This document shows positions 34,648-62,890 of a stretch of DNA of 64,000 nt, one piece after another (the first letter of the stretch is position 1; the number at the start of each line of letters is the position of its first letter). The notes under the pieces were generated by a model. The model was not told where the DNA came from, did not search any database, and was given only the letters and a program-made list of their open reading frames with translations. A program made the translations under genes and the position numbers. Origin of the DNA: a virus (lineage: Duplodnaviria > Caudoviricetes); IMG/VR virus record IMGVR_UViG_3300025357_000908, positions 1-64,000 of that record; one strand, given 5' to 3'.

Positions 34648-35228
34648 TAAACTGTAATTTTAGTGGTAGCAATAAAAATATTATCTACCATACTGTAGAA
34701 CTGATCAATAACAGCTTTTTGAAATTGCTGTGTTTGTTCCGGTGTTAAGTTAGTACTATACGCAAAAGCAGGAGCCTTTTTACCGGCTGTTACATTGACA
34801 CCGGTATGACCGATAGCAATACCGTCTTTAGAGTAGGTAATACTAACAGAAGCTTTACCTTTTTGTTGTACAATGCCACCTTGGGTAAATTCAGCATGTA
34901 CCATAATATCGTCACCCTTCATTTCAATAGGCTTATTAATAATTTTATAAAGAATATTAGCTATTGATGTATTGAATAAACGTTGAAAACATACAGCACC
35001 CATTGGATCCAAGTTAGGTATTTCCCAACAGAAATTAACCATTGAATCACTATAAATGTAGTCGTTTTCAAGAGAATCTTCGAGGTCGATAAGGTTAATA
35101 GTAACTTCAACCGGTGCAACAAAGCTAACAATATTACCGATCGGTAATGTGCGATCTCTAAAATATTTATAAGCAAAACGCTTGTGAATAAAATCGCCGT
35201 TATATATTTTTTGGTCTGTTATAATCAT
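34647..35228 (-). CDS. DUF366-family protein (biotin/lipoate ligase-like fold)
   Basis: YNG..I...FAY, IDLED, IYSD.M.NF..E, GDDI, KASVSI, HTGVN. Confidence 0.72.
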   Translation of the reverse strand: MIITDQKIYNGDFIHKRFAYKYFRDRTLPIGNIVSFVAPVEVTINLIDLEDSLENDYIYSDSMVNFCWEIPNLDPMGAVCFQRLFNTSIANILYKIINKPIEMKGDDIMVHAEFTQGGIVQQKGKASVSITYSKDGIAIGHTGVNVTAGKKAPAFAYSTNLTPEQTQQFQKAVIDQFYSMVDNIFIATTKITV

Positions 35229-36623: not shown

Positions 36624-37280
36624 TTATATAAAAAAGTAGGGGGATTTGTGTTTAAACCTACCTGCAGGTACTATACAGTTGTAGTCCTGTACATCATAAA
36701 CAATTCCCTCCTTCAAGGATTCACTACCTTCAAATTCTGTAGATGAAAAACAGCCTGTAACCGAATTTGCAAATAATGTGCTCGCACTTCTGGCTAAATA
36801 TGTTTTTTTATGTTTAGAGTTAAAAGCCCATATAGCAAACGTACCTTTAAGTAATTCCATAGCTTCTGACACTTGCGGTTTAATCTCTAACATACGAGGT
36901 ATAATGCAGCTGTCGGTTCTACCGAAAAAATCTTCATCAGGAAAATACTCTTTACATAAACTCTCAAAGTTACTAATAATACCGTTATGAGATACTATCC
37001 AGTCACCATAAGTGAATGGGTGATTGTCGCCTGGTTCGAACGATTTCGTTTCTACTGTAGGGCCACGAGAGTGATACAAAAAATAACGACTGTAGGTGTC
37101 TATACCTGGTGGGTTAAAACAGTCTATAGATTCATTAAAAACCCCTTCAGTTTTATGTATACGGTACTGATCATTAGAGTCTAATGTTAATGCACCAGAA
37201 CTATAATAACCCCTTGTAAGATTATTTTTATATAAATTAAAAGCTTTGTCTTTGTATTTTGAGCCAGCTATACCGCACAT
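36624..37280 (-). CDS. Class II (Ntn) glutamine amidotransferase, stand-alone
   Basis: N-terminal MCGI, RG, HSR.PT, HPF, HNGIISN, TDS. Confidence 0.88.
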   Translation of the reverse strand: MCGIAGSKYKDKAFNLYKNNLTRGYYSSGALTLDSNDQYRIHKTEGVFNESIDCFNPPGIDTYSRYFLYHSRGPTVETKSFEPGDNHPFTYGDWIVSHNGIISNFESLCKEYFPDEDFFGRTDSCIIPRMLEIKPQVSEAMELLKGTFAIWAFNSKHKKTYLARSASTLFANSVTGCFSSTEFEGSESLKEGIVYDVQDYNCIVPAGRFKHKSPYFFI

Positions 37281-37281
37281 A

Positions 37282-38004
37282 TTATGTTAAATAGGTTAAA
37301 GGTTTACAGTCGTATTGTTCCCAAGGTATATTACGTGAATATTTAATAGGGTCAATAGCTTTGTTATCAATAAAACCTTTGATACGTGCAGCACACGATA
37401 CACATTCACCGCAAGCAGGATCAGTACCCTCATAACAAGTATGCGTCTGTCTGAAGTCTACCTGTAAGTCAATACCAGTCTTAATTACTTCTTCTTTAGA
37501 ATAACGCATAAACGGCGCATTAACTTTAATAGTATTTTTACGATTAAGACCGTAAATGTCATTAACTTTATTTAAAAACATTGAGGTACAGTCCCAATAA
37601 CCGCTAAAGTCATCTGTCTCCACTGCGCCATAAAACAAGTCTTGAGCACCAATAGATTCAGCCCAACCTGCCGCGCTTGTTAAGAGTAACAAGTTTCTAA
37701 AAGGTACATAGCTTAAGGGTTGAGCGTTACCTACATCATCTTTAGCTTTAGGTATTTTAAGATCTTTATTGGTTAAAGCAGACATAGTTGATATGTCTCT
37801 AAAGAAATCCATATCAATAACTTTGTGCTCTTTAACATTGCATGCTTTAGCTTGGAATATTGCACAGTCAATTTCTCGAGCAATCCGCTGACCGTAGTTA
37901 AACGTTACAGCATATACCTCATCGTATTTAAGTGTTTTAGTTACATAATGTAGTAACACGGTACTATCCATTCCGCCTGATAATATAACTAATGCTTTAT
38001 TCAT
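37282..38004 (-). CDS. queC: 7-cyano-7-deazaguanine (preQ0) synthase
   Basis: SGGMDS, YGQR, YVPFRN, GYWDC, TCY...CGECVSC..R. Confidence 0.95.
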   Translation of the reverse strand: MNKALVILSGGMDSTVLLHYVTKTLKYDEVYAVTFNYGQRIAREIDCAIFQAKACNVKEHKVIDMDFFRDISTMSALTNKDLKIPKAKDDVGNAQPLSYVPFRNLLLLTSAAGWAESIGAQDLFYGAVETDDFSGYWDCTSMFLNKVNDIYGLNRKNTIKVNAPFMRYSKEEVIKTGIDLQVDFRQTHTCYEGTDPACGECVSCAARIKGFIDNKAIDPIKYSRNIPWEQYDCKPLTYLT

Positions 38005-42105: not shown

Positions 42106-42909
42106 TTATACCTTGAGTGCACGATCCCAGACCTGCAAGTGTAATCTATTAGAAAATTTAAAATTATACTTCTTGCACAGTTCAGCTACTACAGGCCCTA
42201 CTTCTAATAATTCTTTACGACTACCACAGCAAGGCATAATCCAAACCTGCTCTGAACGCAAACCAATGTCTGGGTTGTTGAGATAATTTTCTAACACTTC
42301 ATTTAAATCTGACTCTTGACGAGCTACAAACTTAAAGCAGGCGTCGTTTTCAACTAAGAAACGCAGTACTTCCGGTTTAAACCGCTTATCCGCCGGATCC
42401 CCGTTACTTGATAACTTAGGAGATGTAGTAAACGTTATAGTAACCCCTAATAAGAACCACTCTGGATCAGGCATTAGTGTTCCGTTAGTTTCAAAATCAA
42501 TATGTAATAAAGGCTTACCGATATCTTCTTTAGTAAGAGTTCTACTGTAATTAGCAAACCCCCAACGGTCTCTAATAAACTTAACAAATTCAATTAAGTT
42601 CTTTTGCTGAATGAAAGGCTCACCACCGGTAATCTTAAGTAAAGCACCCTGTCTTAAATTTTCATCATAGCCGTTCTTTTCATAGAATTGAGCTATTTCC
42701 TCAAAAGACATTTTGTTCTTTTTAGACCAGCTCACATATGAATCACATCCGAACGGTGCATCTTCACTCTTAAAACCTATACAAGTGAGATTACACATAG
42801 ACAATCTCATAAACACTGAAGGATAACCAATATAACGGCCTTCACCTTCTAATGTATAGAATACAAAGTCGTCTGATAGAAATAAAGTTTTATTAGGATC
42901 GATTGACAT
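42106..42909 (-). CDS. queE: 7-carboxy-7-deazaguanine synthase (radical SAM)
   Basis: EGEG...G..SVF.R...CNL.C...CDS, TGGEP, ETNGT, SPK, RLH..W. Confidence 0.93.
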   Translation of the reverse strand: MSIDPNKTLFLSDDFVFYTLEGEGRYIGYPSVFMRLSMCNLTCIGFKSEDAPFGCDSYVSWSKKNKMSFEEIAQFYEKNGYDENLRQGALLKITGGEPFIQQKNLIEFVKFIRDRWGFANYSRTLTKEDIGKPLLHIDFETNGTLMPDPEWFLLGVTITFTTSPKLSSNGDPADKRFKPEVLRFLVENDACFKFVARQESDLNEVLENYLNNPDIGLRSEQVWIMPCCGSRKELLEVGPVVAELCKKYNFKFSNRLHLQVWDRALKV

Positions 42910-42930: not shown

Positions 42931-43395
42931 TTAGCTTTTCCACTCACCGTCATGAATAGTTTCAAATATAGCACTATTGCCTTCATGCTCCCATACTTCT
43001 ACTTTAGAGCACCAACAACGACCTAAAGTTAGGTCGTCTACAAATTCATTTGCTGCTTTATGACAATATTCAGCAAACTTCTCAATACCAACACCATCTG
43101 GCATTATACGTAAATCTATAATTTCTTTCTTATTGAGTAATTGGAATGTCTGCAATTCAGGGTCTTTTTCCCACACAACAGTGGTATGATCAAACTGTTC
43201 CTCTAATGCTGTTTTTAATTGTTTGAGAGCGCCAAAATCCACTACCCAATTATTATCATCTAATTTATTACACTCAAACCAGAACTTGGCTTGTAACCTG
43301 TAACCATGAATAAAATGACAGTGACTATTTGCAAAAGGTTGACGGAATGCACACGAACCTAATGGTATAACTTTAGTAGAAGTGTATTTTGACAT
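42931..43395 (-). CDS. queD: 6-carboxy-5,6,7,8-tetrahydropterin synthase
   Basis: HC..IHGY, WVVDFG, FDH, E.FA, VWE. Confidence 0.9.
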   Translation of the reverse strand: MSKYTSTKVIPLGSCAFRQPFANSHCHFIHGYRLQAKFWFECNKLDDNNWVVDFGALKQLKTALEEQFDHTTVVWEKDPELQTFQLLNKKEIIDLRIMPDGVGIEKFAEYCHKAANEFVDDLTLGRCWCSKVEVWEHEGNSAIFETIHDGEWKS

Positions 43396-48917: not shown

Positions 48918-49962
48918 TAGTCCAAGAGTAGGTATTTTTTCAGACCCTCATTATGGTGTGCACCGTAATAGTGAAACGTGGCACAAGATTGCTTTAGAGC
49001 ATGCAAGGTGGGCGTCGGAACAATTCAAACAACAGGGCATAAAAGATATAATAATACCAGGAGATATATTTCATGATCGTAATGACATTGCTGTTAACAC
49101 TCTTCATGTGGCTACTGACATTTTTGATATATTGCGTGATTTTAACAACATTGTTACTGTGGGCAACCACGATGCTTATTACCGTGACAATTCTACCGTT
49201 AATTCCGTATCCATACTTCGCGGTTGGAGTAATATTACTGTTGTTGATAAGCTTGCGATCGAAACACTCCAAGGAAAGAAAATAGCTTTTTGTCCATGGG
49301 GTCAGGATATTAATGAAGTACCTAAGTGCGATTTAATTATAGGTCATTTTGAGGTTAATAGTTTCAAGATGAACTCTTATAAAGTATGTACTAATGGGCT
49401 TAAAGCTTCAGATTTAACAGATAGAGCTCCTTTAACTATTACAGGGCATTTCCATCATAGAGAGGAACGCAAATACAAGGATGGTACGATTCTTTATGTG
49501 GGTTGTCCTTATCAGCAGGATTGGGGTGATTATGGTACTACCAAAGGTTTGTATATTTTAGACTTAAAAGACTTAAGTTATGAGTTTATTGTTAACAATG
49601 TATCACCTCGTTATAACAAGATTAAATATTCTGAAATAGCTAATGGTGTATACACAGCTGAATCACTAAAAGGATTTATACGTAACAATATAGTAAAGTT
49701 TTATATAGATAAACAACTTACACCTGAAGTAGTAGATAACATTGTCAGAAAGATTGCTTCAATTAAACCTGTTGAACTTACTTTAGAGTATGATTATTCA
49801 GAACTATCTAAACTTAATGTAGAAGAAGCTAATACTAAGGATTTTAGTATAAGTGTTGAAAACTCTATATCGGAATTTATTGATTTATTAGATGTTAATC
49901 ATAAAGATAAGGTAAAGAGTTACGTAACTGATTTATACCATAGAGCACTAACAATAACATGA
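48907..49962 (+). CDS. gp47: Mre11/SbcD-like recombination nuclease
   Basis: SDPHYG, GDIFH, GNHD, GHFH phosphoesterase motifs. Confidence 0.93.
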   Translation: MQINSPRVGIFSDPHYGVHRNSETWHKIALEHARWASEQFKQQGIKDIIIPGDIFHDRNDIAVNTLHVATDIFDILRDFNNIVTVGNHDAYYRDNSTVNSVSILRGWSNITVVDKLAIETLQGKKIAFCPWGQDINEVPKCDLIIGHFEVNSFKMNSYKVCTNGLKASDLTDRAPLTITGHFHHREERKYKDGTILYVGCPYQQDWGDYGTTKGLYILDLKDLSYEFIVNNVSPRYNKIKYSEIANGVYTAESLKGFIRNNIVKFYIDKQLTPEVVDNIVRKIASIKPVELTLEYDYSELSKLNVEEANTKDFSISVENSISEFIDLLDVNHKDKVKSYVTDLYHRALTIT

Positions 49963-50756
49963 AAATAGGAGTAGCAGTAATAGCGTGCGATAGACTGGAA
50001 TACACTAAACAGTGTGTTGCAAGTGTACTCGCAAATAAAGGTCCATTGACTGATATTATTTTAATTAACGATGGTGTTAAGATACCAGACGGGGAATTAC
50101 CTGAAGGAATTGAAATAATGAACAATAGACCCCCTTATCAGTCTGTCGGTAAGGCTAAAAATAGAGCTATGCAGGTATTAGTAAATAGAGATTGTGATCA
50201 TATATTTCTTATTGAAAATGATATTATAGTTCAAACACCAGACGTATGGCAAAAATATATTGATGTTGCTAAGACTACCGGTGTAAAGCATTTAAATTTC
50301 GGTTATCATGGCCCAGCTAATAGAACACCGGATTATAAGAAACCGAATCCCAGATACGTTGTAGAGTATCCAGACGGTATTAAATTAGCACTTAATTTAC
50401 ATTGCGTTGGTGCGTTTTCATATTTTAATAAAGCATTTATGAAAGACGTTGGTTACCATGACACTTTCTTCAAAAATGCATGGGAGCATGTAGAGTTATG
50501 TCAAAGAGCTATTGCTAAAAATTATTTACCTGCTTTTTGGTGGTTTCCTGATGTAGAAGGTAGTGATGAAATGCTTAAAGAAATACCCGGCTCTATACAA
50601 AATAGCTCTATTACTCATACCGAGAAATGGACAGAAAATATGCACAAAGGTGCAGAACATTATAGAAAAATACATGGTGTTTCAGCTGTAGAAAACCCAG
50701 ATACTGATATAAAAATTGTGTTACAACGTTTAAAAGAAATATACAAATGCAAGTAA
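49959..50756 (+). CDS. Glycosyltransferase family 2-like
   Basis: INDG, VGKAKN, LIEND, AWEHVE. Confidence 0.78.
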   Translation: MKIGVAVIACDRLEYTKQCVASVLANKGPLTDIILINDGVKIPDGELPEGIEIMNNRPPYQSVGKAKNRAMQVLVNRDCDHIFLIENDIIVQTPDVWQKYIDVAKTTGVKHLNFGYHGPANRTPDYKKPNPRYVVEYPDGIKLALNLHCVGAFSYFNKAFMKDVGYHDTFFKNAWEHVELCQRAIAKNYLPAFWWFPDVEGSDEMLKEIPGSIQNSSITHTEKWTENMHKGAEHYRKIHGVSAVENPDTDIKIVLQRLKEIYKCK

Positions 50757-51532
50757 CCCATTTAGCATTAGCACCTAATGGCAACAGTGGTAGATTTGGT
50801 AATCAATTATTTTTAGTTGCCAGTACTATAGGTATAGCACTAAACAATAATATGAAATATGCTTTTCCTGAATGGAAGAACAATATTTACTTTAAAAAGA
50901 AATTGCCGCAATTAGCGCCTGGTACTGGTATAACATATAGCGAGCCGTCCTTTAAGTATACCCCAGTAAATTTTACTGATAAACAATTTGTATATCTTAG
51001 CGGTTACTTTCAAAGCCCTAAGTATTTTCAAAACTATGAAGACACAATAAGAGAGACATTTGAATTTAAAGATAATTTTATTAATAATGTAAAATCTGTA
51101 CTTGATGAAGCAAAATTAGGTACTACGTGTTCAATTCATGTACGTAGAGGAGATTATTTAAACTATACCGATATACATCCGCAGCAGCCGGCTGAATACT
51201 GGAGTAGTGCACAAAAAGTAATAGAAGATCATGAAAATATTAACACATACGTGGTTTTTTCTGATGATATTAACTGGTGTAAGCAAAATAAGCAGCTATT
51301 CAATACTACTGGTAAGAGAGTTGTTTTTATGCAAGGCAGAAACGAAATTGATGATTTTATAGGTATGATGTATTGTGATCACAATATTATTACTAACTCT
51401 ACTTTTTCATGGTGGGCAGCATGGTTAAATACTAATAAAAACAAAGCTGTTGTAATGCCTAAATTATGGTTCGGACCTAAAGGACCACCAGATAGTACAG
51501 ATTTGCAGGTAGAAGGATGGAAAATTATATGA
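50747..51532 (+). CDS. GT11 alpha-1,2-fucosyltransferase-like
   Basis: GRFGNQLF, GYFQS.KYF, HVRRGDY, FSDD..WC, NSTFSWW.A. Confidence 0.92.
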   Translation: MQVTHLALAPNGNSGRFGNQLFLVASTIGIALNNNMKYAFPEWKNNIYFKKKLPQLAPGTGITYSEPSFKYTPVNFTDKQFVYLSGYFQSPKYFQNYEDTIRETFEFKDNFINNVKSVLDEAKLGTTCSIHVRRGDYLNYTDIHPQQPAEYWSSAQKVIEDHENINTYVVFSDDINWCKQNKQLFNTTGKRVVFMQGRNEIDDFIGMMYCDHNIITNSTFSWWAAWLNTNKNKAVVMPKLWFGPKGPPDSTDLQVEGWKII

Positions 51533-52350
51533 AAAAAGAACTTTATTTAAAAGATAGTAATTTCGGGCATTGTGCATTCAGCAACAATCCCACACCACCG
51601 GTTAGTTTTTCTGAACATATTATATGGAATCGCGGACCTGCACCTATAGGTGCTGACGTAGTATGTACGGACTGTCATTTAAATGACGGTAATATTGCCT
51701 GGATATTGGAACCATACGAAATTAATTCAGGCCCGTACATACACGTTAAAAATAATAGTTTGAAGTATAAAGAAATTTGGACACATGATAAAGAGCTTTT
51801 AACATTACCTAATGCTAAATGGTATCCGGTTGGAGGGTGTTGGTTAGAAGTACCTGAAAGAAAAATCTACGAAAAGAGCAAAATGTTCTCTATTATAGCT
51901 TCTAATAAGAATCAACTACCAGGTCATCAACTAAGACATCAAATAATACAAGCTTCTGGTAATAAGATAGATGCTTACGGGCATTCTTATACTCAATTTA
52001 AGAAACACTCAATGCATAAAATAGAGGGTTTAGCAGATTACCGTTATCATTTTGCAATTGAAAATTGTAAGAGAGATTTTTATTTTACAGAAAAACTTAT
52101 TGATACCTTGATGTCTGGTACAATTCCTATATACTGGGGATGTCCTTCTATTGATAAGTTCTTTAATACTGACGGCTTTATTATCTTTAATGACTTGTAC
52201 GATTTAAAAGAAAAACTTAAAAATTGTACAGTAGAGTTTTATGATAGTAAGAAAGCAGTTATTGAAGAAAACTTTAAATTAGCTCAAAACTACATCTTAT
52301 CAGAAGACTGGATATATAATAATATACTACAAAATGAAAAGACAATTTGA
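51529..52350 (+). CDS. GT10 alpha-1,3/4-fucosyltransferase-like
   Basis: K...L..YRYHFAIEN....YFTEKL.D....TIPIYWG. Confidence 0.88.
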   Translation: MKKELYLKDSNFGHCAFSNNPTPPVSFSEHIIWNRGPAPIGADVVCTDCHLNDGNIAWILEPYEINSGPYIHVKNNSLKYKEIWTHDKELLTLPNAKWYPVGGCWLEVPERKIYEKSKMFSIIASNKNQLPGHQLRHQIIQASGNKIDAYGHSYTQFKKHSMHKIEGLADYRYHFAIENCKRDFYFTEKLIDTLMSGTIPIYWGCPSIDKFFNTDGFIIFNDLYDLKEKLKNCTVEFYDSKKAVIEENFKLAQNYILSEDWIYNNILQNEKTI

Positions 52351-52648
52351 TACAGGCGCACAAAGAGATACAGATGTTGGTAAGCCGAGAATAAGTTTAG
52401 TACCTCATGAAGAACTTATGAGGGTAGCAAGTCATTTCGTATCTGGCGGTCAAAAGTATGGGTTCAACAACTGGAAAAAGGGCATGAACTCTTCAGTATA
52501 TTATGATAGTGCACAACGCCACTTGATTAAATACTGGCAAGGTGAAGATGATGAAGACCATGCTGCAGCTGCTGTATGGAATATTATGTGTATGATGTGG
52601 ACTGAAAAGAACAAACCAGAATTAGATGATAGAAAAGAATACCAATGA
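52334..52648 (+). CDS. dATP/dGTP diphosphohydrolase (DUF5664)
   Basis: TGAQRD...KPR.SL.P, G..KYG..NW.KG, S..RH, EDH.AA..WN. Confidence 0.85.
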   Translation: MKRQFDTGAQRDTDVGKPRISLVPHEELMRVASHFVSGGQKYGFNNWKKGMNSSVYYDSAQRHLIKYWQGEDDEDHAAAAVWNIMCMMWTEKNKPELDDRKEYQ

Positions 52649-53400
52649 AAATTGATTTAAAAAACTTAACATTTACAGTACCTGTTAGAATTGATAGTGA
52701 AGACAGGGCGTTTAATCTTAACTATATTATTGAGTATTTACTGCATAATTTTGATACAAATATTATTGTATACGAGAACGGGCCTAAGTCTTTATTTAAA
52801 AACAAGTATGATATAACGCATATTTACGAGCAAAATGATGGTATTTTTCATCGCACTCGTTACCTCAATAATATGGCTAAACAGGCTACTACTGATTTTA
52901 TCGCTAACTATGATTGTGATGTGATATTTCCTGTAAAACAAATAGTTAAAGCTTATAACCTACTAAAAAGTAATAATTTAGATTGTGTTTACCCATATAG
53001 CGGGTACTTTGTTAACATTAAACGTGATATTTTAAATGAAATTACAAATTTAGACCCTGTTAATTTAAATCCAGATATATATCAAAATTTTGGTAAAAAT
53101 TCTTTTGGTGGTGCGGTATTTTGGTATAAAAAAGCTTTTATAGAGGGGGGTATGGAAAATGAAAATTGCGTATCTTGGGGATGTGAAGACTGGGAGCGTT
53201 TAAAGCGTTTTGAAATTCTCGGTTATCGTATTGCGAGAGTAAATGGGCCACTGTATCACATTGATCATGCAAGAACTCAGGATAGTAGTGAAGCTAACCC
53301 GTTTTATAATAACAACAGAAAAGAATTTGATAAAATATTAAACTCTAAAAAAGAAGATTTATTAAAATATGTTAGTACGTGGCCTTGGACAAAAACATAA
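52645..53400 (+). CDS. GT-A glycosyltransferase (GT2/GT7C-like)
   Basis: NYDCDV, GGAVF, GGMENE...WGCED.ER, LYHIDH. Confidence 0.82.
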   Translation: MKIDLKNLTFTVPVRIDSEDRAFNLNYIIEYLLHNFDTNIIVYENGPKSLFKNKYDITHIYEQNDGIFHRTRYLNNMAKQATTDFIANYDCDVIFPVKQIVKAYNLLKSNNLDCVYPYSGYFVNIKRDILNEITNLDPVNLNPDIYQNFGKNSFGGAVFWYKKAFIEGGMENENCVSWGCEDWERLKRFEILGYRIARVNGPLYHIDHARTQDSSEANPFYNNNRKEFDKILNSKKEDLLKYVSTWPWTKT

Positions 53401-54182
53401 TGAAAAAAGTATACATTACTTTTAGTGGTAGTATCTATGATGATACTACCCGTATAATAGTTCAAGATGGTATAAAATATGGTGCTGATGAAGTTAAGGT
53501 GTACGATGATGTGTGGTTAATGAAACAACCATTTTTTGAACAAAATAAATGGCTCTGGGAACACCCGCACAAAAGAGGATTTGGATGGTACTGTTGGAAA
53601 CCGTTTATAATATATCATGCTTTACAGAACCTACAAGACGGAGATATAGTGTTGTTTACAGATGCTGATTGTTACCCTATTAGTGATTTAAATGTATTGT
53701 TTAATCAATGTGATAAAGATGGTGGTGTAATGTTATTTGCTGCTAACGGACAAACACACTCTTACTGGTGCAAAAAAGATTGCTATATAATAATGGGTCA
53801 AAATGACCCTAAATATTACAACGTACAAGCTGGTGTAGCACGGTTTATGTTATTTCAAAAAGGTAAATGGAAGGCTACACAGTTTTTAATGGAGTGGTTA
53901 ACATATTGCGTTAACCCATTAGCTACAACGTTTGATAAGAGTGTTCTTGCTGAAGAAACGCCTGAATTTATTGAACATAGAACCGAACAAGCAATAATGA
54001 CCAGTCTTGCACACAAGTATGGTTTAAAGCTTTATAGAGAAGCCTGCGGAGCTGGTAACAGGTATAGTTTTGATAAGGAGTTATATGAGCAATTATTCAT
54101 ACAGTTTAATCCTACCGATTTAGTTGGTAGTGAAAAAGCTACAATTAAACCCATAGGCTCTAAGTTTGCTAATGTTAATTGA
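53400..54182 (+). CDS. Putative glycosyltransferase
   Basis: RGFGWYCWKPFII, TDAD (DxD), EHRTEQAI; embedded in the GT operon. Confidence 0.6.
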   Translation: MKKVYITFSGSIYDDTTRIIVQDGIKYGADEVKVYDDVWLMKQPFFEQNKWLWEHPHKRGFGWYCWKPFIIYHALQNLQDGDIVLFTDADCYPISDLNVLFNQCDKDGGVMLFAANGQTHSYWCKKDCYIIMGQNDPKYYNVQAGVARFMLFQKGKWKATQFLMEWLTYCVNPLATTFDKSVLAEETPEFIEHRTEQAIMTSLAHKYGLKLYREACGAGNRYSFDKELYEQLFIQFNPTDLVGSEKATIKPIGSKFANVN

Positions 54183-54190
54183 GTTTACAG

Positions 54191-54218
54191 TAGAAAAAAA
54201 ATAGTTTTATAATATACT
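54191..54218 (+). promoter_or_regulatory. sigma70-like promoter of gp46
   Basis: TAGAAA-N16-TATACT. Confidence 0.5.
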
Positions 54219-54226
54219 ATTAAGTA

Positions 54227-56050
54227 ATGCGCTATGTTTATTTCAAACATTTAAAAATTACTAATTTCCTGTCTGTAGGTAAAAGACCGGTAGTTGTAGA
54301 TTTTAAGCCTGGACTAAATATCATTACAGGTAAAAACTATGATAAAGCTGATAGAGCGAATGGCGTTGGAAAGTCCACTATTGCTGACGCAGTGCATTTT
54401 GCTTTGTATGGTAGCACTATACGCGATCTTAAAAAAGAAAACATAGTAAACGATCAAGCACCTGATCAGTTGTGTGAAGTCGAGCTCGAGCTTACATACC
54501 AGCAAGACGGTAAAAATAATGAATGCCGGATATTAAGAACTCTTAATCCTACTAAGTGCTTTTTCTTCGTTAATGGTGAAGATGTTACCAGATCTGGTGT
54601 ACCACAAACTACAGAGCTAATAGTTGATACCATTAAAACATCTTCTGAAATATTTCAAAATAGTGTTGTTATGTCAATTAACACCACGGTGCCATTTATG
54701 GCGCAGAAAAAGATAGAAAAACGTAAGTTTATCGAGGGTATTCTTGGTCTTGAAGTATTTAGTAATATGTTAAGCTTTGCACGTTTTGATTATAATGAAG
54801 CAAAACGTCTGCTCGATATTGAAAGTACAAAGATAGAAGAGACGAACAGGTCTTTAGCCGATGCGGTTAAACAAAAAGAAAATTACGAAGACACTAAAAA
54901 GAAAAGACTTGAAGTACTATTAACACGTCAGTCTAATAACGCTAAGGAATTAGCGAGTATAGATGAAAAGCTTAATAGTTTAGAATCTGTTGATATAGCA
55001 GCAGAAAAACAAATACAAGATAAATTATCTACTTTAAAAACAGCTGAAGGGGTATGTGACCGTAAAATTGCTTCTATTAATAAGATTATTACAGAAGCAG
55101 AAACACATATTAAGCTCAATAATGATCGCATTAAAAAACTTAAAAAAGTAGATAGCAAATGTCCACATTGCGGTAAAGACTTGGCAGAAGCAGTAAATGT
55201 ACAATATGAGAAAGATAAAGCCGAGTGCCAGTTAGAAATACAGAAATATACAGAAGTTATTAGTACACAAAAACCGCTCTTAGTGGATTCCCAAGATCAA
55301 TTAAATAAGGTTGAAAAAGCTATTGTTACAATACAAAAGAAGATAAACGATTTTAATATTCGTAAAAAAGAAGTAGAGAATATTAACAACAGAGTAAAGC
55401 AGCTTAATGAATGGCAAGCTTCGTTAGTTGTAGATATCGATCAACTTAATAAAGACTCTAATAATTTTCAAGATACTATAGATACTATTGTGACAAGGCA
55501 GAACGATATCAAGAAGCAAATCAGCTCATTACAAGAGAGAATAGATATTGTTGAATCCGCTAAATTTATCGTAGACGAAGAAGGTGTAAAATCTTATATT
55601 GTTAAGAAGATATTACAAGTACTAAATATGCGTTTAGCGCAATACTTACGTAGACTTGAAAGTAACAGTATTGTTACATTTAACGAGTTCTTCGAAGAGT
55701 CTATTACTAATGAAAGGGGTAGTCAATGTAGTTACTTTAACTTTTCTGGGGCTGAACGCAAAGCTATCGACCTTGCAATGTTATTTACGTTTCAGGATAT
55801 TCGTAGAGCGCAAGCAGATGTATGGTTAAATTTGAGTATGTTTGATGAGTTATTTGACTCCTCTTTAGATGAAAAAGGCATTGAATTAGTACTTGATATT
55901 CTCAAAGAGAGGGTAGATAATTACAATGAGTCGATTTATATTATTTCTCACCGTAAAGAAAGTAAAAAGTACTGTATTGGTGGGGAGATAGTATATCTTG
56001 AAAAGAAGAATGGTATAACAACAAGAACAACAACTTATGACATTTCCTAA
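54227..56050 (+). CDS. gp46: Rad50/SbcC-like recombination ATPase
   Basis: NGVGKST, CPHC zinc hook, FSGAE signature, DELFDSSLD, ISH. Confidence 0.95.
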   Translation: MRYVYFKHLKITNFLSVGKRPVVVDFKPGLNIITGKNYDKADRANGVGKSTIADAVHFALYGSTIRDLKKENIVNDQAPDQLCEVELELTYQQDGKNNECRILRTLNPTKCFFFVNGEDVTRSGVPQTTELIVDTIKTSSEIFQNSVVMSINTTVPFMAQKKIEKRKFIEGILGLEVFSNMLSFARFDYNEAKRLLDIESTKIEETNRSLADAVKQKENYEDTKKKRLEVLLTRQSNNAKELASIDEKLNSLESVDIAAEKQIQDKLSTLKTAEGVCDRKIASINKIITEAETHIKLNNDRIKKLKKVDSKCPHCGKDLAEAVNVQYEKDKAECQLEIQKYTEVISTQKPLLVDSQDQLNKVEKAIVTIQKKINDFNIRKKEVENINNRVKQLNEWQASLVVDIDQLNKDSNNFQDTIDTIVTRQNDIKKQISSLQERIDIVESAKFIVDEEGVKSYIVKKILQVLNMRLAQYLRRLESNSIVTFNEFFEESITNERGSQCSYFNFSGAERKAIDLAMLFTFQDIRRAQADVWLNLSMFDELFDSSLDEKGIELVLDILKERVDNYNESIYIISHRKESKKYCIGGEIVYLEKKNGITTRTTTYDIS

Positions 56051-57200
56051 TAACGGCATTATTGGTGCCCCTCAAATGCCTTTTGGTGCACCTGTTGTGG
56101 GTAGCCCATTAACACAGCCCACCCCACCGCCAGTTTCAGTTGTACCGGAAGGTATGAGACGTGCTATAAGTTATGCTGCAGACCACCAAGGGTGCGGGTT
56201 TTGGAGAATGCACTGGGCTGAGTCTATTATTAATGGTAATCAATTGGGTATCATTAATAATAATAATTTTATGATCTTACAGGAGAACTTTTATCAAGGT
56301 ATATCTTGTGTAAGAATACAAAGACAGGTTACACCCACACAGCTACAATTTGTAAGACTTTTAAGAGACATTTCTAATAGAACCAACAATTTTAAGATTT
56401 ATTACGAAATTGATGATGTTATTTTCCCAGAAGATATTCCACTTTATAACAAAGCACGTGAAGCATTTGTTGATCCTGCCATTGGAGCTACTGCAATAGA
56501 AATTATGAAGCTTTGTGATGGTATTACAACGCCTACAGATTACATGTCAAAGTACTACGAAGAAAGAACCGGCGTAAAAGGAATCACACTTCCTAACTAT
56601 ATGCCAAGGTTCTGGATGGATCGTTTTTACAACAAAAATAAGATTTCTGAAAATTACGAATACAATAAAAAACGACCTCGTATCGGTTATGTGGGTAGTC
56701 CAACTCATTTTAATATTGCTGGTACTCCTGGAGTGAAAGACGACTTCGGTGATATATTAGATGTTATTGTAAAAACTGTAAAGCAGTTTAAATGGGTATT
56801 AATGGGCGGTTGCCCTCAGGAGCTTGCTGAATACGTGCGTAGTGGAGATATAGAATATGTAGGCTGGACAAAGCTTTGGGACTACCCTACAGCTTTTAAC
56901 AATTTAAACGTTAATATGGTAATTGCACCACTACAAAACAATAAATTTAATTTAGCAAAAGCTAATATTAAACATATTGAAGCAGGTGCGTTAGGTATAC
57001 CATGTGTTTGTCAAAATTTAGAGCCGTATAAAGAAGCTCCTTTACGGTTCAATACTCCTGATGAAATGATAAGCGTGATTAAAAAAACATTAAGCGACCG
57101 TCGTACTTATTTAACTGAATCGGATATAGCACGTAAAAATGCATGTAAATATTGGTTAGAAGATCATATTGATGAGCATTGCAAACTATATTTCACTTGA
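56037..57200 (+). CDS. GT-B (GT4-like) glycosyltransferase
   Basis: GCGFWR, YEIDD, RIGYVGS.TH, IAPL..N.FN..K.NIK.IE. Confidence 0.78.
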   Translation: MTFPNNGIIGAPQMPFGAPVVGSPLTQPTPPPVSVVPEGMRRAISYAADHQGCGFWRMHWAESIINGNQLGIINNNNFMILQENFYQGISCVRIQRQVTPTQLQFVRLLRDISNRTNNFKIYYEIDDVIFPEDIPLYNKAREAFVDPAIGATAIEIMKLCDGITTPTDYMSKYYEERTGVKGITLPNYMPRFWMDRFYNKNKISENYEYNKKRPRIGYVGSPTHFNIAGTPGVKDDFGDILDVIVKTVKQFKWVLMGGCPQELAEYVRSGDIEYVGWTKLWDYPTAFNNLNVNMVIAPLQNNKFNLAKANIKHIEAGALGIPCVCQNLEPYKEAPLRFNTPDEMISVIKKTLSDRRTYLTESDIARKNACKYWLEDHIDEHCKLYFT

Positions 57201-57224
57201 TATTTTTGTAAAAGGTCACATAAT
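57197..57224 (+). promoter_or_regulatory. sigma70-like promoter of the polymerase-deazaguanine operon
   Basis: TTGATA-N16-CATAAT. Confidence 0.55.
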
Positions 57225-57232
57225 AATGACCT

Positions 57233-59797
57233 GTGTATCGTAACATATATTACAGTCAACGGGATAGTACTTGCCACCTCTTTACTTGGGATAAAGACGG
57301 TAACCGTGTAATCAAAAAGACACCTTACCAGCCTTATTTTTATATAGAGACTAATGCAGAAAGTGCAGACGCTCTTTCTATCTTTAATACTAAATTAAAG
57401 AAAAAAGTATTTAAAAGTAATTTTGATCGTAATAAAGCAGCACAAGACGGGGCAATTAAACGACTTTATCACAATATACAAGTAGAACAGCAATTCCTTA
57501 TTGAAAATTTTAAGGATGAATATGAAAAGCCTGAGTTTTCTGCTAACCCTTTAAAGGTTTGTTTTCTTGATATTGAGGTTTACTCTCCAGATGAGTTTCC
57601 TGAAGCTAAAGACGCTAAACACCCTATCAATCTATTAACGATTTATGATAACTTATCTGAACAATTTTATACCTGGGGGTGTAAGCCTTATACTCCAACT
57701 CGTAGTAACGTTACATATACTGAGTGTACAAGTGAGTACAATCTTTTAGAAAAGTTTTTAGAATTTTGGGAAAACGGTTATTATCCTGATATACTATCCG
57801 GGTGGAATACAGACTTTTTCGATTTTCCTTATCTGATTAACCGTATCAATAACCTTTTAGGTGAAGACGCTGCTAAACGTTTATCTCCTGTAAAAAGTCT
57901 TTGGTGTCGTAAAGGTATATTTGTTAAAGGTCAAGAGTTAGATCGTTGGTACATTCACGGTATTTCAGCAATGGATTATCTTGAAGTGTATAGAGGTTTT
58001 GCGCGTGGTTTATTAGAGTCTTATGCACTAAACTTTGTAGCTCAACACGAATTAGGTGAAGGTAAGTTAGCTATTAATGCTACTAACTTAGCCTCACTAT
58101 CTGAAAACGACTGGAATAACTTTGTAGATTATAATATTCAAGACGTTGATCTATTGGTACGCATGGAAAAGAAACTACAATTCTTTAAGATTATACGTAT
58201 GTTAGCGTACAAAGGATTGACATCGTTTGAAGCAGCTTTAGGTAAAGTATCTATTGTAACTGGCTGTGTTGCCTTACAAGCGTATAAACACGGTATGATT
58301 ATACCTACGTTTGTTGAAGGACCTTTAAGAGAGGAAATCCAGGGTGGTTTTGTAAGAGAACCCGAGAGAGGTCTACAGAGATCGATTGTGAGCTATGACG
58401 CTAACTCACTATACCCTAATACTATAATTACCCTGAATATATCCCCCGAGACGAAGTTCGGTAAGATAGTTAATAAGAACGATAAGGAAGTTATTATTCG
58501 TTATAGTAACAATAAAGAACAACCTATATCACACGAAAAGTTTATACAGTTTATGCAGGTTGAAAAACTTGCACTATCTAAAGCTAATGTTCTTTACACA
58601 CAAAAGAAAAAGGGTGTAGTTCCTGCTTTAATTGACGGTCTTTATAGTGAACGTGTAACAAACAAGAATCAGTATGTTGAGCTTAAAAAGAAACTAAGTA
58701 AATTAACCCCAGATACAGATGAGTACAAAACGTGTAAGTTTAATATGGAACGAGCGGACACTATCCAGCACGTCATCAAGATTCTTCTCAATTCTATCTA
58801 CGGGGTTTTTGCTAATAAGTTTAGCCCTATTTGTGATAGTGATCACGCTGGTAGCATTACTCTTACTGGGCAGTCGGTGGTTAAGCAAGCAAGTGATATC
58901 ATTGATCAATATGCTAAAGAAAAGTTTGGCTACACTGGTAAGTCGTTAACCATATATAACGACACGGATAGTACTCACGTTACTATTCAGCCGTTGTTAG
59001 ACCAGATGAAACTAAACATATTAACCGATAATAAGGTTAACAAAGAAGGTTTAAAATTCATCGATGATGAATTAGGAGTTTATCTTAATAATAACATTAA
59101 ACAATGGGCAAAGGATAAACTAAATTCTGTAGACCCTCGTTACTTCTTTAAACGTGAATCAATTTGTGATGTTGGTGTTTATCTTGAAAAGAAACGTTAC
59201 ATTATACATGTGTTGAACGATGAAGGCGCAGACGTTAATAAGTTTAAGTACGTCGGTGTTGAAATTGCACGCTCTACTACACCTAAGAAAGCTAAAGAAT
59301 TAATTAAGAAGGTTATTGAAAACAGTTTATTGGTACAAGATCAAAATAAGGCTAATGCTATTTATAGAGATGTGTATGACGGTTTTAAATCGTTAACTAT
59401 TGATGACGTAGCTATTAGAGGTGGTTTAAGTGACTTAGAAAAACATGAAGTTCGTTCAGAAGGCTTTAAAATAGCTAAAGGCACACCAAATCACGTAAAA
59501 GGCGCAATTTGGTATAACATGCTATTAAAGCATAGAGGGTTAGAAACAAAGTACGAACGTATTACTTCAGGTGGTAAGGTAAAAAAGATTTATATTGCAC
59601 CTAACAAGTATAATATTGATACTCTTTGCTACCCCGTCAGTTTTCCACCAGAATTAAACGATTTTCAAGTTGATTACGAAGAAATGTTCGATACAATTAT
59701 AGTACCTCCAGTAAAAGCAGTTTATGAAGCTCTTAACTGGCAGTTACCGCAAGTAAACAATCAAGCACAAACAGATTTATTCGACCTATTCACATGA
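57233..59797 (+). CDS. gp43: Family B DNA polymerase
   Basis: Exo DIE, FD, YN..D; pol DANSLYP, K..LNS.YG, YNDTDS, KKRY. Confidence 0.97.
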   Translation: MYRNIYYSQRDSTCHLFTWDKDGNRVIKKTPYQPYFYIETNAESADALSIFNTKLKKKVFKSNFDRNKAAQDGAIKRLYHNIQVEQQFLIENFKDEYEKPEFSANPLKVCFLDIEVYSPDEFPEAKDAKHPINLLTIYDNLSEQFYTWGCKPYTPTRSNVTYTECTSEYNLLEKFLEFWENGYYPDILSGWNTDFFDFPYLINRINNLLGEDAAKRLSPVKSLWCRKGIFVKGQELDRWYIHGISAMDYLEVYRGFARGLLESYALNFVAQHELGEGKLAINATNLASLSENDWNNFVDYNIQDVDLLVRMEKKLQFFKIIRMLAYKGLTSFEAALGKVSIVTGCVALQAYKHGMIIPTFVEGPLREEIQGGFVREPERGLQRSIVSYDANSLYPNTIITLNISPETKFGKIVNKNDKEVIIRYSNNKEQPISHEKFIQFMQVEKLALSKANVLYTQKKKGVVPALIDGLYSERVTNKNQYVELKKKLSKLTPDTDEYKTCKFNMERADTIQHVIKILLNSIYGVFANKFSPICDSDHAGSITLTGQSVVKQASDIIDQYAKEKFGYTGKSLTIYNDTDSTHVTIQPLLDQMKLNILTDNKVNKEGLKFIDDELGVYLNNNIKQWAKDKLNSVDPRYFFKRESICDVGVYLEKKRYIIHVLNDEGADVNKFKYVGVEIARSTTPKKAKELIKKVIENSLLVQDQNKANAIYRDVYDGFKSLTIDDVAIRGGLSDLEKHEVRSEGFKIAKGTPNHVKGAIWYNMLLKHRGLETKYERITSGGKVKKIYIAPNKYNIDTLCYPVSFPPELNDFQVDYEEMFDTIIVPPVKAVYEALNWQLPQVNNQAQTDLFDLFT

Positions 59798-60600
59798 TTA
59801 AAATATCTCACGAATCCCCTTTAAGTATGCTCGAGATCTCTCGTACATACAACGATTACGACTACGCTCTCGTACACTTGTTCGAAGAGCACCCAGAATA
59901 TTACAAGTTCTTTGAAGATAGTGTTAAAATGGGTAGACATGTCTTATTAGATAATTCTATCTTTGAATTAGGTGAATCTTTTAACCCTAAACGCTATGCT
60001 TATTGGATTCAAAGACTTAACCCTACTGAGTTTATCGTACCAGACGTATTAGAAGATTGTCAAGGTACTATTGATTCTGCTAAGAAATGCTTGTGGCACG
60101 ATTGGGACTTTGTTACTAACTCTAAAATAATGGGTGTTGTACAGGGTAAGACATATGGTGAATTAGTTAAGTGTTATGTAGCCTTAGACCAAGAGATCGG
60201 TGTAGATAAGTTAGCTATTTCATTTGACTATTCTTATTACCTCAAACTATTCCCACACCCTAACAAATGGGTATCTTATATGATGGGTAGAGTGATGACT
60301 CTTAATCAATTAATGAATGACGGTATTATTAATAAAGATAAACCTCACCACTTATTAGGTTGCGCACACCCAAGAGAATTTAGTTTCTATCAAGGACCTG
60401 AATATAACTGGATCGAGACGTTAGATACATCATCTCCTGTTGTTCACGGTATTAAAAGAGTAAGGTACTCTGATGCTATTGGTAACTGGAAGAAGGAGTC
60501 TACCAAGCTTGTAGATCTTTTAGATGTAATACCGGATGCAATGCAAGAAAAAATCATTGCAAATAATTTAATTGAGTTTAGAAACTACGTTAATGGATGA
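59794..60600 (+). CDS. Divergent TGT-like transglycosylase (DpdA-like, possibly DpdA3 type)
   Basis: TGT-barrel motif order LLDNS, VPDV, GVVQG, HHLLG, LDTSSP; context of que genes. Confidence 0.65.
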   Translation: MIKISHESPLSMLEISRTYNDYDYALVHLFEEHPEYYKFFEDSVKMGRHVLLDNSIFELGESFNPKRYAYWIQRLNPTEFIVPDVLEDCQGTIDSAKKCLWHDWDFVTNSKIMGVVQGKTYGELVKCYVALDQEIGVDKLAISFDYSYYLKLFPHPNKWVSYMMGRVMTLNQLMNDGIINKDKPHHLLGCAHPREFSFYQGPEYNWIETLDTSSPVVHGIKRVRYSDAIGNWKKESTKLVDLLDVIPDAMQEKIIANNLIEFRNYVNG

Positions 60601-60827
60601 CAACATTAGAAGCTATAACCAACTCAGTTTATGCTAACTATCCCCATCTTTTGGCAGATAACGTGTCTATTGTTGATTATTGTTTTTGGGATTGTTTGTC
60701 AAATACGGAGATACCAGTAAAAGAAATGAAAGAAGTCAAAAATTACTTGACTTCTAACGGAATCGTTGATTTTACACTTGTAATTTTCTTTAGTGATAAT
60801 ACAATAGGTTATCGTCTAAAAATATGA
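60597..60827 (+). CDS. Hypothetical protein
   Basis: ATGA-coupled on both sides within the operon. Confidence 0.65.
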   Translation: MTTLEAITNSVYANYPHLLADNVSIVDYCFWDCLSNTEIPVKEMKEVKNYLTSNGIVDFTLVIFFSDNTIGYRLKI

Positions 60828-61402
60828 AACGTAACTTAATCTGGAAAGCATTCTTCTCTCAGAGTGGATCTGAAATAAATGAAATATCTAATAAGGTAGA
60901 AAGGTACCCGGATGCAATTATTACTAATAAGAGTTTTGACGATTTAGATAAAATTAACCCCGAATTACTTGAAAAGTGCTTTAATAAGTTCATATTTCTG
61001 CCGAAGAAACCAACTGTAGAAGAATACCGGGAAGCTATTAGACATACTGATGTCATAACGTTACATGGTTATCTTCGTATTCTACCGCCAGAAATATGCG
61101 GTAAATTTAAAATATATAATGGACATCCAGGACTTATAACCAAGTACCCAGAACTAAAAGGTAAAGACCCTCAAGCTAAAACATGGTACGCATACCCTGA
61201 AAAGAAGTACAACACACATGGACATGTTATTCATGAAGTTATACCAGAAGTAGATGCAGGTAGGGTTGTATCTGAAATGCGCTTCAGTACAGAGGATTTA
61301 TATTTAGATTATAAAAGTTTAGATTTATTTACTGAACATTTACATAGCGTAGCAATTCAAAATTGGGTTGGCTTTATGCGTAAAAGCCTATTAAATAAAT
61401 AA
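60824..61402 (+). CDS. PurN-like formyltransferase (DpdN-like)
   Basis: FSQSGSE, LHGYLRIL, YNGHPGL, H.V..EVDAG formyl-THF motifs. Confidence 0.82.
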   Translation: MKRNLIWKAFFSQSGSEINEISNKVERYPDAIITNKSFDDLDKINPELLEKCFNKFIFLPKKPTVEEYREAIRHTDVITLHGYLRILPPEICGKFKIYNGHPGLITKYPELKGKDPQAKTWYAYPEKKYNTHGHVIHEVIPEVDAGRVVSEMRFSTEDLYLDYKSLDLFTEHLHSVAIQNWVGFMRKSLLNK

Positions 61403-61404
61403 TT

Positions 61405-61980
61405 ATGAGATCAAACTATAAAGCTGCAATCTGTGGCGCTCATTCACAAGGTAAGACTACATTAGTAAAAGCACTAAAAGATGATCTGTTCTTAGATGAT
61501 CAGCATTTTAGTTTTAGAACTAATCTAACAAGAGGTCTTAAAGATTTAAACGTACCTATTAATGAAGGTGGTACTTCTTTAACTCAATATCTGGTAATGG
61601 CTCGTCATTTAGAGTATGCTCTAACTCCAGGTAACTGGATCTTAGATAGAGGTGCTTTAGACGGAATTGCATATACTGCTTATTTTTATGAGAAAGAACA
61701 AGTCAATAAAGATGTATATCAAGCAGCTTTATCTGTTTATGAATCACTGTTAGGTACTTACGATAAGATTTTTTATGTTGTACCCGAACTTGATATTAAA
61801 GATGACGGTGAAAGAAGTACAAATAAAGAATTCTTTGATGGTGTAGTAAAACAATTTGATTTTTATATCAAACATCATTCAATGCCTAAAGACAAACTTG
61901 TTTATGTGATAGGATCAGTAAAAGATAGAGTTAAAATAATAACAGATACAATTAAAAAAGATTTTACCAATGAGCTATAA
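61405..61980 (+). CDS. P-loop nucleotide kinase-like protein (AAA_28/NMP kinase)
   Basis: GAHSQGKTT, DRGALD..AY, DDGER. Confidence 0.75.
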   Translation: MRSNYKAAICGAHSQGKTTLVKALKDDLFLDDQHFSFRTNLTRGLKDLNVPINEGGTSLTQYLVMARHLEYALTPGNWILDRGALDGIAYTAYFYEKEQVNKDVYQAALSVYESLLGTYDKIFYVVPELDIKDDGERSTNKEFFDGVVKQFDFYIKHHSMPKDKLVYVIGSVKDRVKIITDTIKKDFTNEL

Positions 61981-62890
61981 TACTAATAATATCGATAAAG
62001 TACTCGGTCAGAGAGTAGACTCTCCAAGTACATATACCCCAGAGATTTTGGTGCGTGAAGAGCGCCAACGTAACCGCACATATCTTGATCTTAAGAACGG
62101 TTCTTTACCTTTCGTGGGTTATGATATCTGGAATGGCTACGAATGTAGTGCATTAACAGATAGTGGTTTACCTGTTACTTGTGTTGCTAAAGTAGTATAC
62201 TCTGCTGAAAACGATTTCATTGTAGAGTCTAAGTCAATGAAGCTTTATTGGAACTCATTTAATATGCAGAAAATGGGTAAGAATACTAAGGAAGTACTTA
62301 AGAACATTAAACAAACAGCTTCTAAAGACCTATCCTTATTATTAGAGACTGATGTTAAGGTAGAGCTATTCTCTCAAATTACTGACACTGAAACCGAAAA
62401 AGATAGAGAAGTTTGGTTTTCAGATCATAGTTCCAAAATTTGGCGCCCATTAGAACAAATTAAGAGTGCAGAAAAGATTAAGTTTACTGTATTCAACGAG
62501 AATGCTGATCTGTTAGTAGCTAATGAAACCGAATCAACAGAACAACACTTCTATATGAGTACTCTGTTACGTTCTAACTGTAAAATTACAAAGCAACCAG
62601 ATTCGGGCGATATTTTCATTTACTATAAAGGTAATAAAGCAGTAACTGAACAATCTCTATTAGAATGGATTGTTTCATTCCGTAATGAATGTCATTTCCA
62701 CGAAGAAATCTGTGAAGCTGCTTATAAGCGTTTATGGGACTTGTTACAACCTGAAGAGCTTATGGTAACTTGCTACTACGCAAGACGTGGTGGTTGGGAT
62801 ATTGTTCCTACACGTGCTTCTCATAAGAAACTACTCAACAAGTATCTTGTTAATGTAAAAGCACCTTACTTTAAATTTCCTCGTCAATAA
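61970..62890 (+). CDS. queF: NADPH-dependent preQ0 reductase, bimodular type
   Basis: D.WN.YE, ESKSMKLYWNSF QueF motif, SNCKITKQPD, FHE, RRGG. Confidence 0.95.
   Translation: MSYNTNNIDKVLGQRVDSPSTYTPEILVREERQRNRTYLDLKNGSLPFVGYDIWNGYECSALTDSGLPVTCVAKVVYSAENDFIVESKSMKLYWNSFNMQKMGKNTKEVLKNIKQTASKDLSLLLETDVKVELFSQITDTETEKDREVWFSDHSSKIWRPLEQIKSAEKIKFTVFNENADLLVANETESTEQHFYMSTLLRSNCKITKQPDSGDIFIYYKGNKAVTEQSLLEWIVSFRNECHFHEEICEAAYKRLWDLLQPEELMVTCYYARRGGWDIVPTRASHKKLLNKYLVNVKAPYFKFPRQ

Follow-up and report, generated by a model that had tools for sequence, protein, structure and literature searches.

A DpdA3-type 7-deazaguanine module joined to the DNA polymerase gene of an uncultured T4-like phage, and the kinase that accompanies DpdA3

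The first 64 kb (hereafter the window) of the linear, 122.7-kb IMG/VR virus record IMGVR_UViG_3300025357_000908, which is ~58% complete and comes from an uncultured T4-like phage, hold a DpdA3-type module whose predicted product is 7-(formylamino)methyl-7-deazaguanine (formyl-preQ1) in place of guanine. This replacement, put forward in a first-pass annotation of the window, is well supported because of the homology and synteny with Flavobacterium phage immuto, whose DNA is fully substituted: 345,000 fdPreQ1 per 10^6 nucleotides (nt), and no dG, were reported for its virion DNA (PMC10516641). The gene set has already been described, and the window appears to represent another fdPreQ1/DpdA3 system, extending these systems to a T4-like lineage that is abundant and uncultured; related viral contigs number more than 500. 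Our comparisons also show that DpdA3 has a near-obligate partner, a small P-loop kinase of the AAA_28 family, which bears on the question of how DpdA3 phages reach 100% G replacement. The single most likely reading, which we hold at about even chances, is a pre-replicative route. Gene content, homology, folds and the DpdA3-kinase linkage are shown here, whereas what DpdA3 and the kinase act on, the step taken by DpdN and the composition of the virion DNA are inferred.

Six co-oriented genes lie head to tail in the window and encode a family B DNA polymerase (PolB), DpdA3, a protein of 76 amino acids (aa), a DpdN-like formyltransferase, the kinase and QueF (Table 1). Their junctions measure, in order, -4, -4, -4, +2 and -11 nt, the three -4 junctions being ATGA overlaps, so that the open reading frames (ORFs) and their spacing are as first described. 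The first of these overlaps joins the polB stop codon to the dpdA3 start codon, and DpdA3 appears to be translationally coupled to PolB in this T4-like lineage. The run is flanked by SbcC/SbcD-like genes and several glycosyltransferase (GT) genes on one side and by uvsX on the other. More than 50 viral contigs share the order GT-polB-DpdA3-orf76-DpdN-kinase-QueF-orf117-UvsX, among them a clade in which polB identity falls to as little as 52%. Therefore, the arrangement from polB to queF is not a chance juxtaposition.

The TGT-like protein encoded by the second gene is, by sequence comparison, a member of the subfamily named DpdA3 by Cui, Hutinet et al. (PMC10516641). Over 100% of its length it shares 50% identity with the immuto protein annotated as DNA guanine transglycosylase DpdA (E 6e-78), and in the Campylobacter CP220 group it has an unannotated counterpart at 42-43% identity, while a profile of its relatives matches phiST gp042 with an E value of 4.6e-25. 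Pfam and NCBIfam searches gave no match and sequence and profile searches of the PDB gave nothing significant, the kinship with tRNA-guanine transglycosylases (TGTs) being seen only by fold search. An AlphaFold model built on 45 relatives (pLDDT 92.6) matched TGTs in Foldseek with an E value of 4e-8, the top matches being all TGTs, and superposed on the Z. mobilis TGT (VIA) with a Z score of 17.7 and a root-mean-square deviation of 3.2 Å over 232 of 268 residues, which bears out the TGT fold that had been proposed. Three aspartates (D53, D84 and D211) are invariant in 54 relatives at 36-52% identity. In a weak alignment (E 0.93), the only PDB match at the sequence level, D211 falls on the nucleophile Asp of the bacterial DpdA 7UI4 and the second Leu of the segment HLLG...D-T-S-x-P falls on its base-stacking Leu; D53 and D84 were assigned by motif resemblance only. 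The structural Zn site (CxCxxC...H) and Ins8 were not found in DpdA3, in which no Cys follows D211 and only ~57 residues remain after it. Bacterial DpdA, in contrast, has a CXCX2CX22H motif and conserved large DNA-binding insertions (PMC10164549). DpdA3 proteins are acidic, with a median isoelectric point (pI) of 5.6 and a net charge of -8.

The family is large, since 534 viral-contig stretches encode a relative and ~3,400 cluster representatives (50% identity) match the DpdA3 profile, 436 of them at E < 1e-30. Among the relatives, DpdA3 is fused to QueF in P0391, P0392 and P0394, to DpdN in P0277 and P0366, and to a DUF3310 domain in P0342. The DpdN and QueF fusions link DpdA3 to enzymes of the base pathway; they do not tell its substrate. 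In two relatives (P0393 and P0395) DpdA3 carries an intein with a LAGLIDADG endonuclease (PF14890, PF03161).

The kinase of the window is 36% identical to that of immuto and 33% identical to CP220 gp057. Its residues G11, G16-K17-T19, D81-R82, D134 and R137, corresponding to the P-loop, the DR motif and the lid Arg, are invariant. The structural model (pLDDT 90.5) is closest to the NadR ribosylnicotinamide kinase (Z 17.1), followed by deoxycytidine kinase (16.3), deoxyguanosine kinase (16.2) and thymidylate kinases (15.1-15.5), the three classes lying within 2 units of one another. No polynucleotide kinase was found among the best fold matches, and no guanylate kinase among the 50 best. The modelled fold is thus of the small-molecule nucleoside/nucleotide kinase type and probably nearest to nucleoside kinases.

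In order to quantify the linkage, 119 full-length DpdA3 loci were clustered at 80% identity, and counts were made on the 36 clusters in which 1.5 kb or more of sequence was available downstream. In 35 of these 36 clusters an AAA_28 kinase gene occurs no more than 2.5 kb downstream of DpdA3, compared with 32 for QueF and 29 for DpdN. The kinase is retained in a locus that has neither DpdN nor QueF (L086, with the order polB-DpdA3-orf76-kinase-UvsX) and in three where DpdN alone is missing (L112, L122 and L126). In L112, an immuto-like locus, the kinase gene (6123-7079) encodes 318 aa, with a C-terminal part weakly similar to GNAT acetyltransferases (E 0.002), a hint that preQ1 may receive a different acyl group from formyl. 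The exception to the linkage is Bacillus phage BSTP12, where a 187-aa P-loop ORF overlaps the start of the DpdA3-like gene and PolA overlaps its end; this ORF was rejected as a kinase homologue, as it shares only the P-loop with the kinase.

Searches of whole records detected the kinase family in 12 of 13 DpdA3 phages, including CP220, Campylobacter phage CC_R7 and immuto, and in neither of two deazaguanine phages without DpdA3, 9g and VH7D. Likewise, no kinase match at E < 1e-3 was obtained in 19 control loci, a small and phylogenetically narrow set composed of 17 DpdA1 loci fetched with the DpdA1 of Enterobacteria phage 9g, 50 kb of the 9g genome and the VH7D region. Pfam and PDB sequence searches did not establish VH7D gp012 as a DpdA, and VH7D therefore counts only as a genome-level negative for the kinase. 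The association of DpdA3 with a kinase was not found in the searchable literature, and the publication in which DpdA3 was defined never uses the word "kinase" (PMC10516641).

These observations bear on how the modified base reaches DNA. In the pre-replicative route, FolE, QueD, a QueE-like protein, QueC and QueF would convert GTP to preQ1, and DpdN would add the formyl group, at a point of the pathway that we place tentatively. DpdA3 would act on a free deoxyguanosine nucleoside or nucleotide, replacing its guanine with the deazaguanine base, the adjacent AAA_28 kinase would phosphorylate the exchanged product, host NDP kinase would complete the triphosphate, and the phage polymerase would incorporate the modified nucleotide. 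We give an evenly balanced chance to the idea that DpdA3 is the first TGT-fold transglycosylase acting on free deoxyguanosine nucleoside/nucleotide rather than modifying DNA, with its kinase partner feeding a 7-deazaguanine dNTP to the replisome. The kinase linkage partly supports this route, being tighter than that of DpdN or QueF and absent from 9g, VH7D and the controls. Other observations come from the literature. Complete G substitution was found in the three DpdA3 phages tested, CP220 (Crippen et al., cited in PMC10516641), phiST and immuto (PMC10516641), and only DpdA3 phages among deazaguanine phages show complete replacement (Cui et al., PMC10516641). The ADG nucleoside was reported from the cytoplasm of cells infected with CP220, and the authors' Escherichia coli test showed no activity for DpdA3 alone (PMC10516641). 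A plausible but unproven explanation is that a pre-replicative route accounts for the near-obligate kinase, the complete replacement, the cytoplasmic ADG nucleoside and the failure of DpdA3 alone. If true, CP220, phiST, immuto and this large freshwater T4-like clade would reach their complete replacement of G by a pre-replicative route, contrary to the published proposal, and an enzymatic route to 7-substituted 7-deaza-dGTPs would be available. The kinase partner makes this alternative directly testable in immuto, CP220 and phiST, which can be cultured.

Several points weigh against this reading. To our knowledge, all characterised TGT-superfamily enzymes act on a polynucleotide, either tRNA or DNA, and none on a free nucleotide. 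Nothing in the DpdA3 sequence or model separates it from a DNA-acting enzyme: the DpdA1 of 9g is likewise short (317 aa), acidic (pI 5.6, net charge -8) and CxCxxC-less, and its gene adjoins the clamp and polymerase genes. For this reason, the small size, the acidity and the lack of a Zn site or Ins8 were dropped as signs against DNA binding. No DpdA3-kinase fusion was found among the 150 best family representatives or the proteins of at least 502 aa, with lengths of 470-501 aa and lower-ranked matches lying outside that search. Finally, the authors who defined DpdA3 propose a post-replicative insertion, a proposal based on the presence of DpdA3 and no assay (PMC10516641).

In such a post-replicative route, G-containing DNA would be made first and DpdA3 would flip out and exchange every G for preQ1 or formyl-preQ1, perhaps at the replication fork or immediately behind it. 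We regard this as a serious possibility, albeit one short of an even chance. It agrees with the polynucleotide substrates of the characterised TGT and DpdA enzymes, with the use of the same three Asp on DNA by bacterial DpdA (PMC10164549), with the alignment of the DpdA3 motif HLLG...D-[ST]-[ST]-P to 7UI4, and with the properties of 9g DpdA1 described above. The kinase could then serve another step: guanine might be converted to GMP by a phosphoribosyltransferase and to GDP by the kinase, refilling the GTP used by FolE, or the kinase might phosphorylate dNMPs in general for dNTP supply, as T4 gp1 does. A phosphoribosyltransferase gene beside FolE in immuto-like clusters fits such a guanine salvage loop. 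However, no phosphoribosyltransferase was found in this ~58% complete record or in the T4-like groups, and the fold of the kinase is nearest to nucleoside and TMP kinases, guanylate kinases being absent from the 50 best matches. Moreover, a post-replicative exchange gives no specific reason for a kinase after DpdA3 in 35 of 36 loci and none at the DpdA1 and VH7D loci and genomes. Nor does it sit easily with 100% replacement being confined to DpdA3 systems and with DpdA3 having produced no DNA modification in E. coli (PMC10516641).

The first-pass annotation had argued for synthesis at the level of the nucleotide pool from three features, namely the kinase, the coupling to the polymerase and a dGTP-destroying enzyme elsewhere. 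Only the kinase argument holds up, through the linkage to DpdA3 (35 of 36 loci; 12 of 13 DpdA3 records versus none of two) and through a fold that is nearest to kinases of free nucleosides. A polymerase near DpdA3 does recur, as PolB in the window, PolA in BSTP12 and immuto-like phages, Pol III alpha in phiST and a polymerase in CC_R7; there is no polymerase within 8 kb in a second group of T4-like DpdA3 loci (hereafter group 2). Polymerase adjacency was nevertheless dropped as evidence for pool-level synthesis, because the DpdA1 of 9g, which belongs to a partially modifying subfamily, also adjoins a clamp and a polymerase.

As for the dGTP-destroying enzyme, the family match is real: a gene 4.6 kb upstream of polB encodes a predicted MazZ-like protein that matches PF18909 at 89.2 bits (cut-off 27), although it consists only of the 99-position N-terminal domain. 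This gene and the NTP pyrophosphatases beside DpdA3 in immuto-like phages and phiST can be read in favour of the pre-replicative route, but as an argument the MazZ-like gene is weak. It occurs only in the closest relatives (L063, L072 and L074), five DpdA3 phage genomes from other clades, all complete or nearly so, do not have it, and the complete DpdA3 phage genome G001 has no PF18909, PRA-PH or MazG match. A PRA-PH/MazG-like gene lies 165-212 nt upstream of DpdA3 in nine immuto-like loci, while a tenth, L121, has it downstream of the kinase, and NTP pyrophosphatases are encoded elsewhere in some group-2 genomes. Such enzymes are common among phages generally. In the record studied here, the HD, MazG, PRA-PH, DCD and phosphoribosyltransferase families were not found, and a dUTPase (11805-12362) looks ordinary. 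CP220 gp055, which combines HD and AAA_33 kinase domains, was not counted as a dGTPase because its architecture resembles that of HD-Pnk end-healing enzymes.

A third possibility is that the cassette has no genomic target and modifies tRNA or another RNA, or makes a 7-deazaguanine nucleoside or nucleotide that serves as a signal, an inhibitor or the like. The solved structures closest to DpdA3 are indeed tRNA-guanine transglycosylases, and the DNA composition of this phage is a prediction from its genes. However, close homologues in the same order belong to the fully fdPreQ1-substituted immuto, the three tested DpdA3 phages mentioned above were all completely substituted, and the dpdA3 gene is embedded in a replication module between polB and uvsX. 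We therefore consider a non-genomic target very improbable.

The closest known system is that of immuto, in which the gene order is MazG-like, small ORF, DpdA3, small ORF, DpdN, "thymidylate kinase", QueF, two ORFs and PolA. The window shares with it DpdA3 (50% identity), DpdN (44.5%), the kinase (36%) and QueF (43.5%) in the same order, with a small ORF after DpdA3 in both, as well as the full preQ1 pathway. The two differ in that the polymerase of immuto is of family A and lies 3 kb downstream, whereas that of the T4-like phage is of family B and overlaps the start of DpdA3. The window also lacks a MazG/PRA-PH gene directly upstream of DpdA3, having instead the PF18909 gene before polB, and its record lacks the phosphoribosyltransferase that immuto-like clusters have beside FolE. 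Furthermore, QueC, the QueE-like gene and QueD of the window are 17-23 kb away from the module, with a stand-alone glutamine amidotransferase (GATase) after QueC, and the DNA composition was measured in immuto and is predicted from the genes here.

CP220, whose DNA contains dADG, has a DpdA3 (42%) followed directly by the homologous kinase gp057 (33%). In phiST (dDG), the order is MazG (gp039), DpdL, an "ATPase", DpdA3, a small ORF and Pol III alpha; the P-loop gene gp041 beside DpdA3 (gp042) was assigned to AAA_18 by its annotators and was not detected by the profile of the window's kinase. Unlike the window, both phages lack QueF and DpdN and go no further than CDG-derived bases, and phiST also differs in having DpdL and a Pol III alpha polymerase. 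Campylobacter phage CC_R7 (L061, PQ092953.1 103384-107848) displays a tight QueC-DpdA3-kinase-polymerase block adjoined by several transposase genes; its DpdA3-like protein is distant, being 27% identical to CP220 DpdA3.

The DpdA1 of Enterobacteria phage 9g (dG+) resembles DpdA3 in belonging to the TGT superfamily, in exchanging a base for a 7-deazaguanine and in being Zn-less, acidic and encoded next to a clamp and a polymerase. In contrast to the DpdA3 phages, no AAA_28 kinase occurs in the 9g genome or in 17 related DpdA1 loci, and the DpdA1 subfamily modifies only 0.1-30% of Gs (PMC10516641). The bacterial DpdA/DpdB/DpdC system also uses a TGT-superfamily base exchange with 7-deazaguanine, but its DpdA, unlike DpdA3, carries both a Zn site and large insertions that bind DNA.

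A functional analogy with T4 would apply if the route is pre-replicative. T4 replaces a base at the pool level with the gp56 dCTPase, the gp42 dCMP hydroxymethylase, the gp1 dNMP kinase and gp43, so that in both cases a mononucleotide would be modified, phosphorylated by a phage kinase and incorporated by a phage polymerase. Here, however, the entire base would be swapped by a transglycosylase of TGT fold, which would be unprecedented for the superfamily, and the searches across DpdA3 phages revealed no conserved enzyme for excluding dGTP.

The whole FolE-to-QueF set is present in the record (Table 1). The genes queC, queE and queD were found on the minus strand at 37-43 kb as anticipated, the second being only QueE-like, and folE, expected outside the window, lies beyond its end. 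QueF also matches TIGR03138 (E 1.7e-65), under the equivalog cut-off of that model. The DpdN-like protein keeps the N-terminal S-x-S-G-S-E loop after the first strand, which presumably occupies the position where PurN holds the 5'-phosphate of its ribonucleotide substrate; we consider this a lead, not a test.

Table 1. Positions and supporting matches of the features discussed (positions refer to the window except for FolE)
Feature	Position	Strand	Evidence
Family B replicative DNA polymerase (T4 gp43-like), 854 aa, GTG start	57233..59797	+	PF00136, PF03104; phrog_262 E 9e-190
DpdA3-type 7-deazaguanine transglycosylase (predicted), TGT-fold TIM barrel, 268 aa, without Zn motif	59794..60600	+	homology, model
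76-aa ORF, clade-specific	60597..60827	+	
DpdN-like formyltransferase (PurN superfamily), 192 aa	60824..61402	+	PF00551 E 2.7e-7
AAA_28 P-loop nucleoside/nucleotide kinase, 191 aa	61405..61980	+	PF13521 E 4e-10
Two-domain QueF (preQ0 to preQ1 reductase), 306 aa	61970..62890	+	PF14819 E 6.4e-27, PF14489 E 1.6e-19
QueC (preQ0 synthase)	37282..38004	-	PF06508 E 7.6e-62
Stand-alone class-II glutamine amidotransferase, immediately after queC	36624..37280	-	PF13522, PF13537
Second AAA_28 kinase paralogue, 236 aa	40968..41678	-	PF13521 E 1.7e-9; phrog_2107
QueE-like radical-SAM protein	42106..42909	-	weak Fer4_12 match; homologues adjoin FolE in group-2 loci
QueD (6-carboxytetrahydropterin synthase)	42931..43395	-	PF01242 E 1.3e-17; 39% identical to immuto QueD
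FolE	71075-71608 of the same record, 7 kb past the window		E 3.8e-49
Promoter-like pair TTGATA-16-CATAAT overlapped by hairpin	57197..57232	+	position and motif conserved in diverged relatives
MazZ-like dATP/dGTP diphosphohydrolase N-terminal domain protein (predicted), 104 aa	52334..52648	+	PF18909 dGTP_diPhyd_N E 1.8e-25

The pairing of QueC with the GATase is also kept in group-2 DpdA3 loci (e.g. L090:11019-12396). In a QueF-bearing phage, a stand-alone GATase beside queC may supply ammonia to QueC or may be the sign of a second product. Just downstream of the queC-GATase pair are encoded a DUF366 protein (34647-35228, minus strand, E 1e-19) and a weakly 2OG-Fe(II) oxygenase-like protein (33636-34277, minus strand). 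Between Gat and QueD of group-2 deazaguanine clusters we observed a methyltransferase and a protein with the dCTP-deaminase/dUTPase fold (L090:12554-13048; PF22769, E 4e-12).

The second AAA_28 paralogue of the window sits between a primase gene on one side and the QueE-like and QueD genes on the other. G001, G007, CP220 and CC_R7 likewise have a second copy, and the two paralogues could act in succession, each catalysing one phosphorylation.

The polymerase has both exonuclease and polymerase domains (PF03104 and PF00136), its phrog_262 match spanning residues 6-849. Upstream of its gene, a CTTGAT-N16/17-CATAAT pair stops 8 nt short of the GTG start codon and is found at the same position in diverged relatives. 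It is overlapped by a hairpin (AGGTCA/TGACCT) with a 6-bp stem and an 8-nt loop that abuts the start codon. In the relatives the arms differ yet still pair (AGGTCATA/TATGACCT in L081; AGGCCATA/TATGGCTT in L080 and L084). The element may act as a translational operator of the gp43 type or as a leaderless promoter under regulation. As for the single promoter initially proposed for the run, a generic promoter scan stayed at chance level, with 48 sites against 42.5 +/- 7.6 expected, but this -35/-10-like pair is a candidate because its position is conserved.

The 76-aa ORF gave no Pfam, PHROG or NCBIfam match except a sub-threshold one to GST_C_3. It is 74-95% identical across the clade of the window, including L086, which lacks DpdN and QueF, and it was not found in group-2 loci. 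Directly 5' of polB, the glycosyltransferase run (49959-57200) comprises GT2-like, GT11, GT10 fucosyltransferase-like, GT7C-like and GT1-like genes interleaved with the SbcCD-like genes, and the glycosyltransferase gene adjoining polB is kept together with the module in relatives.

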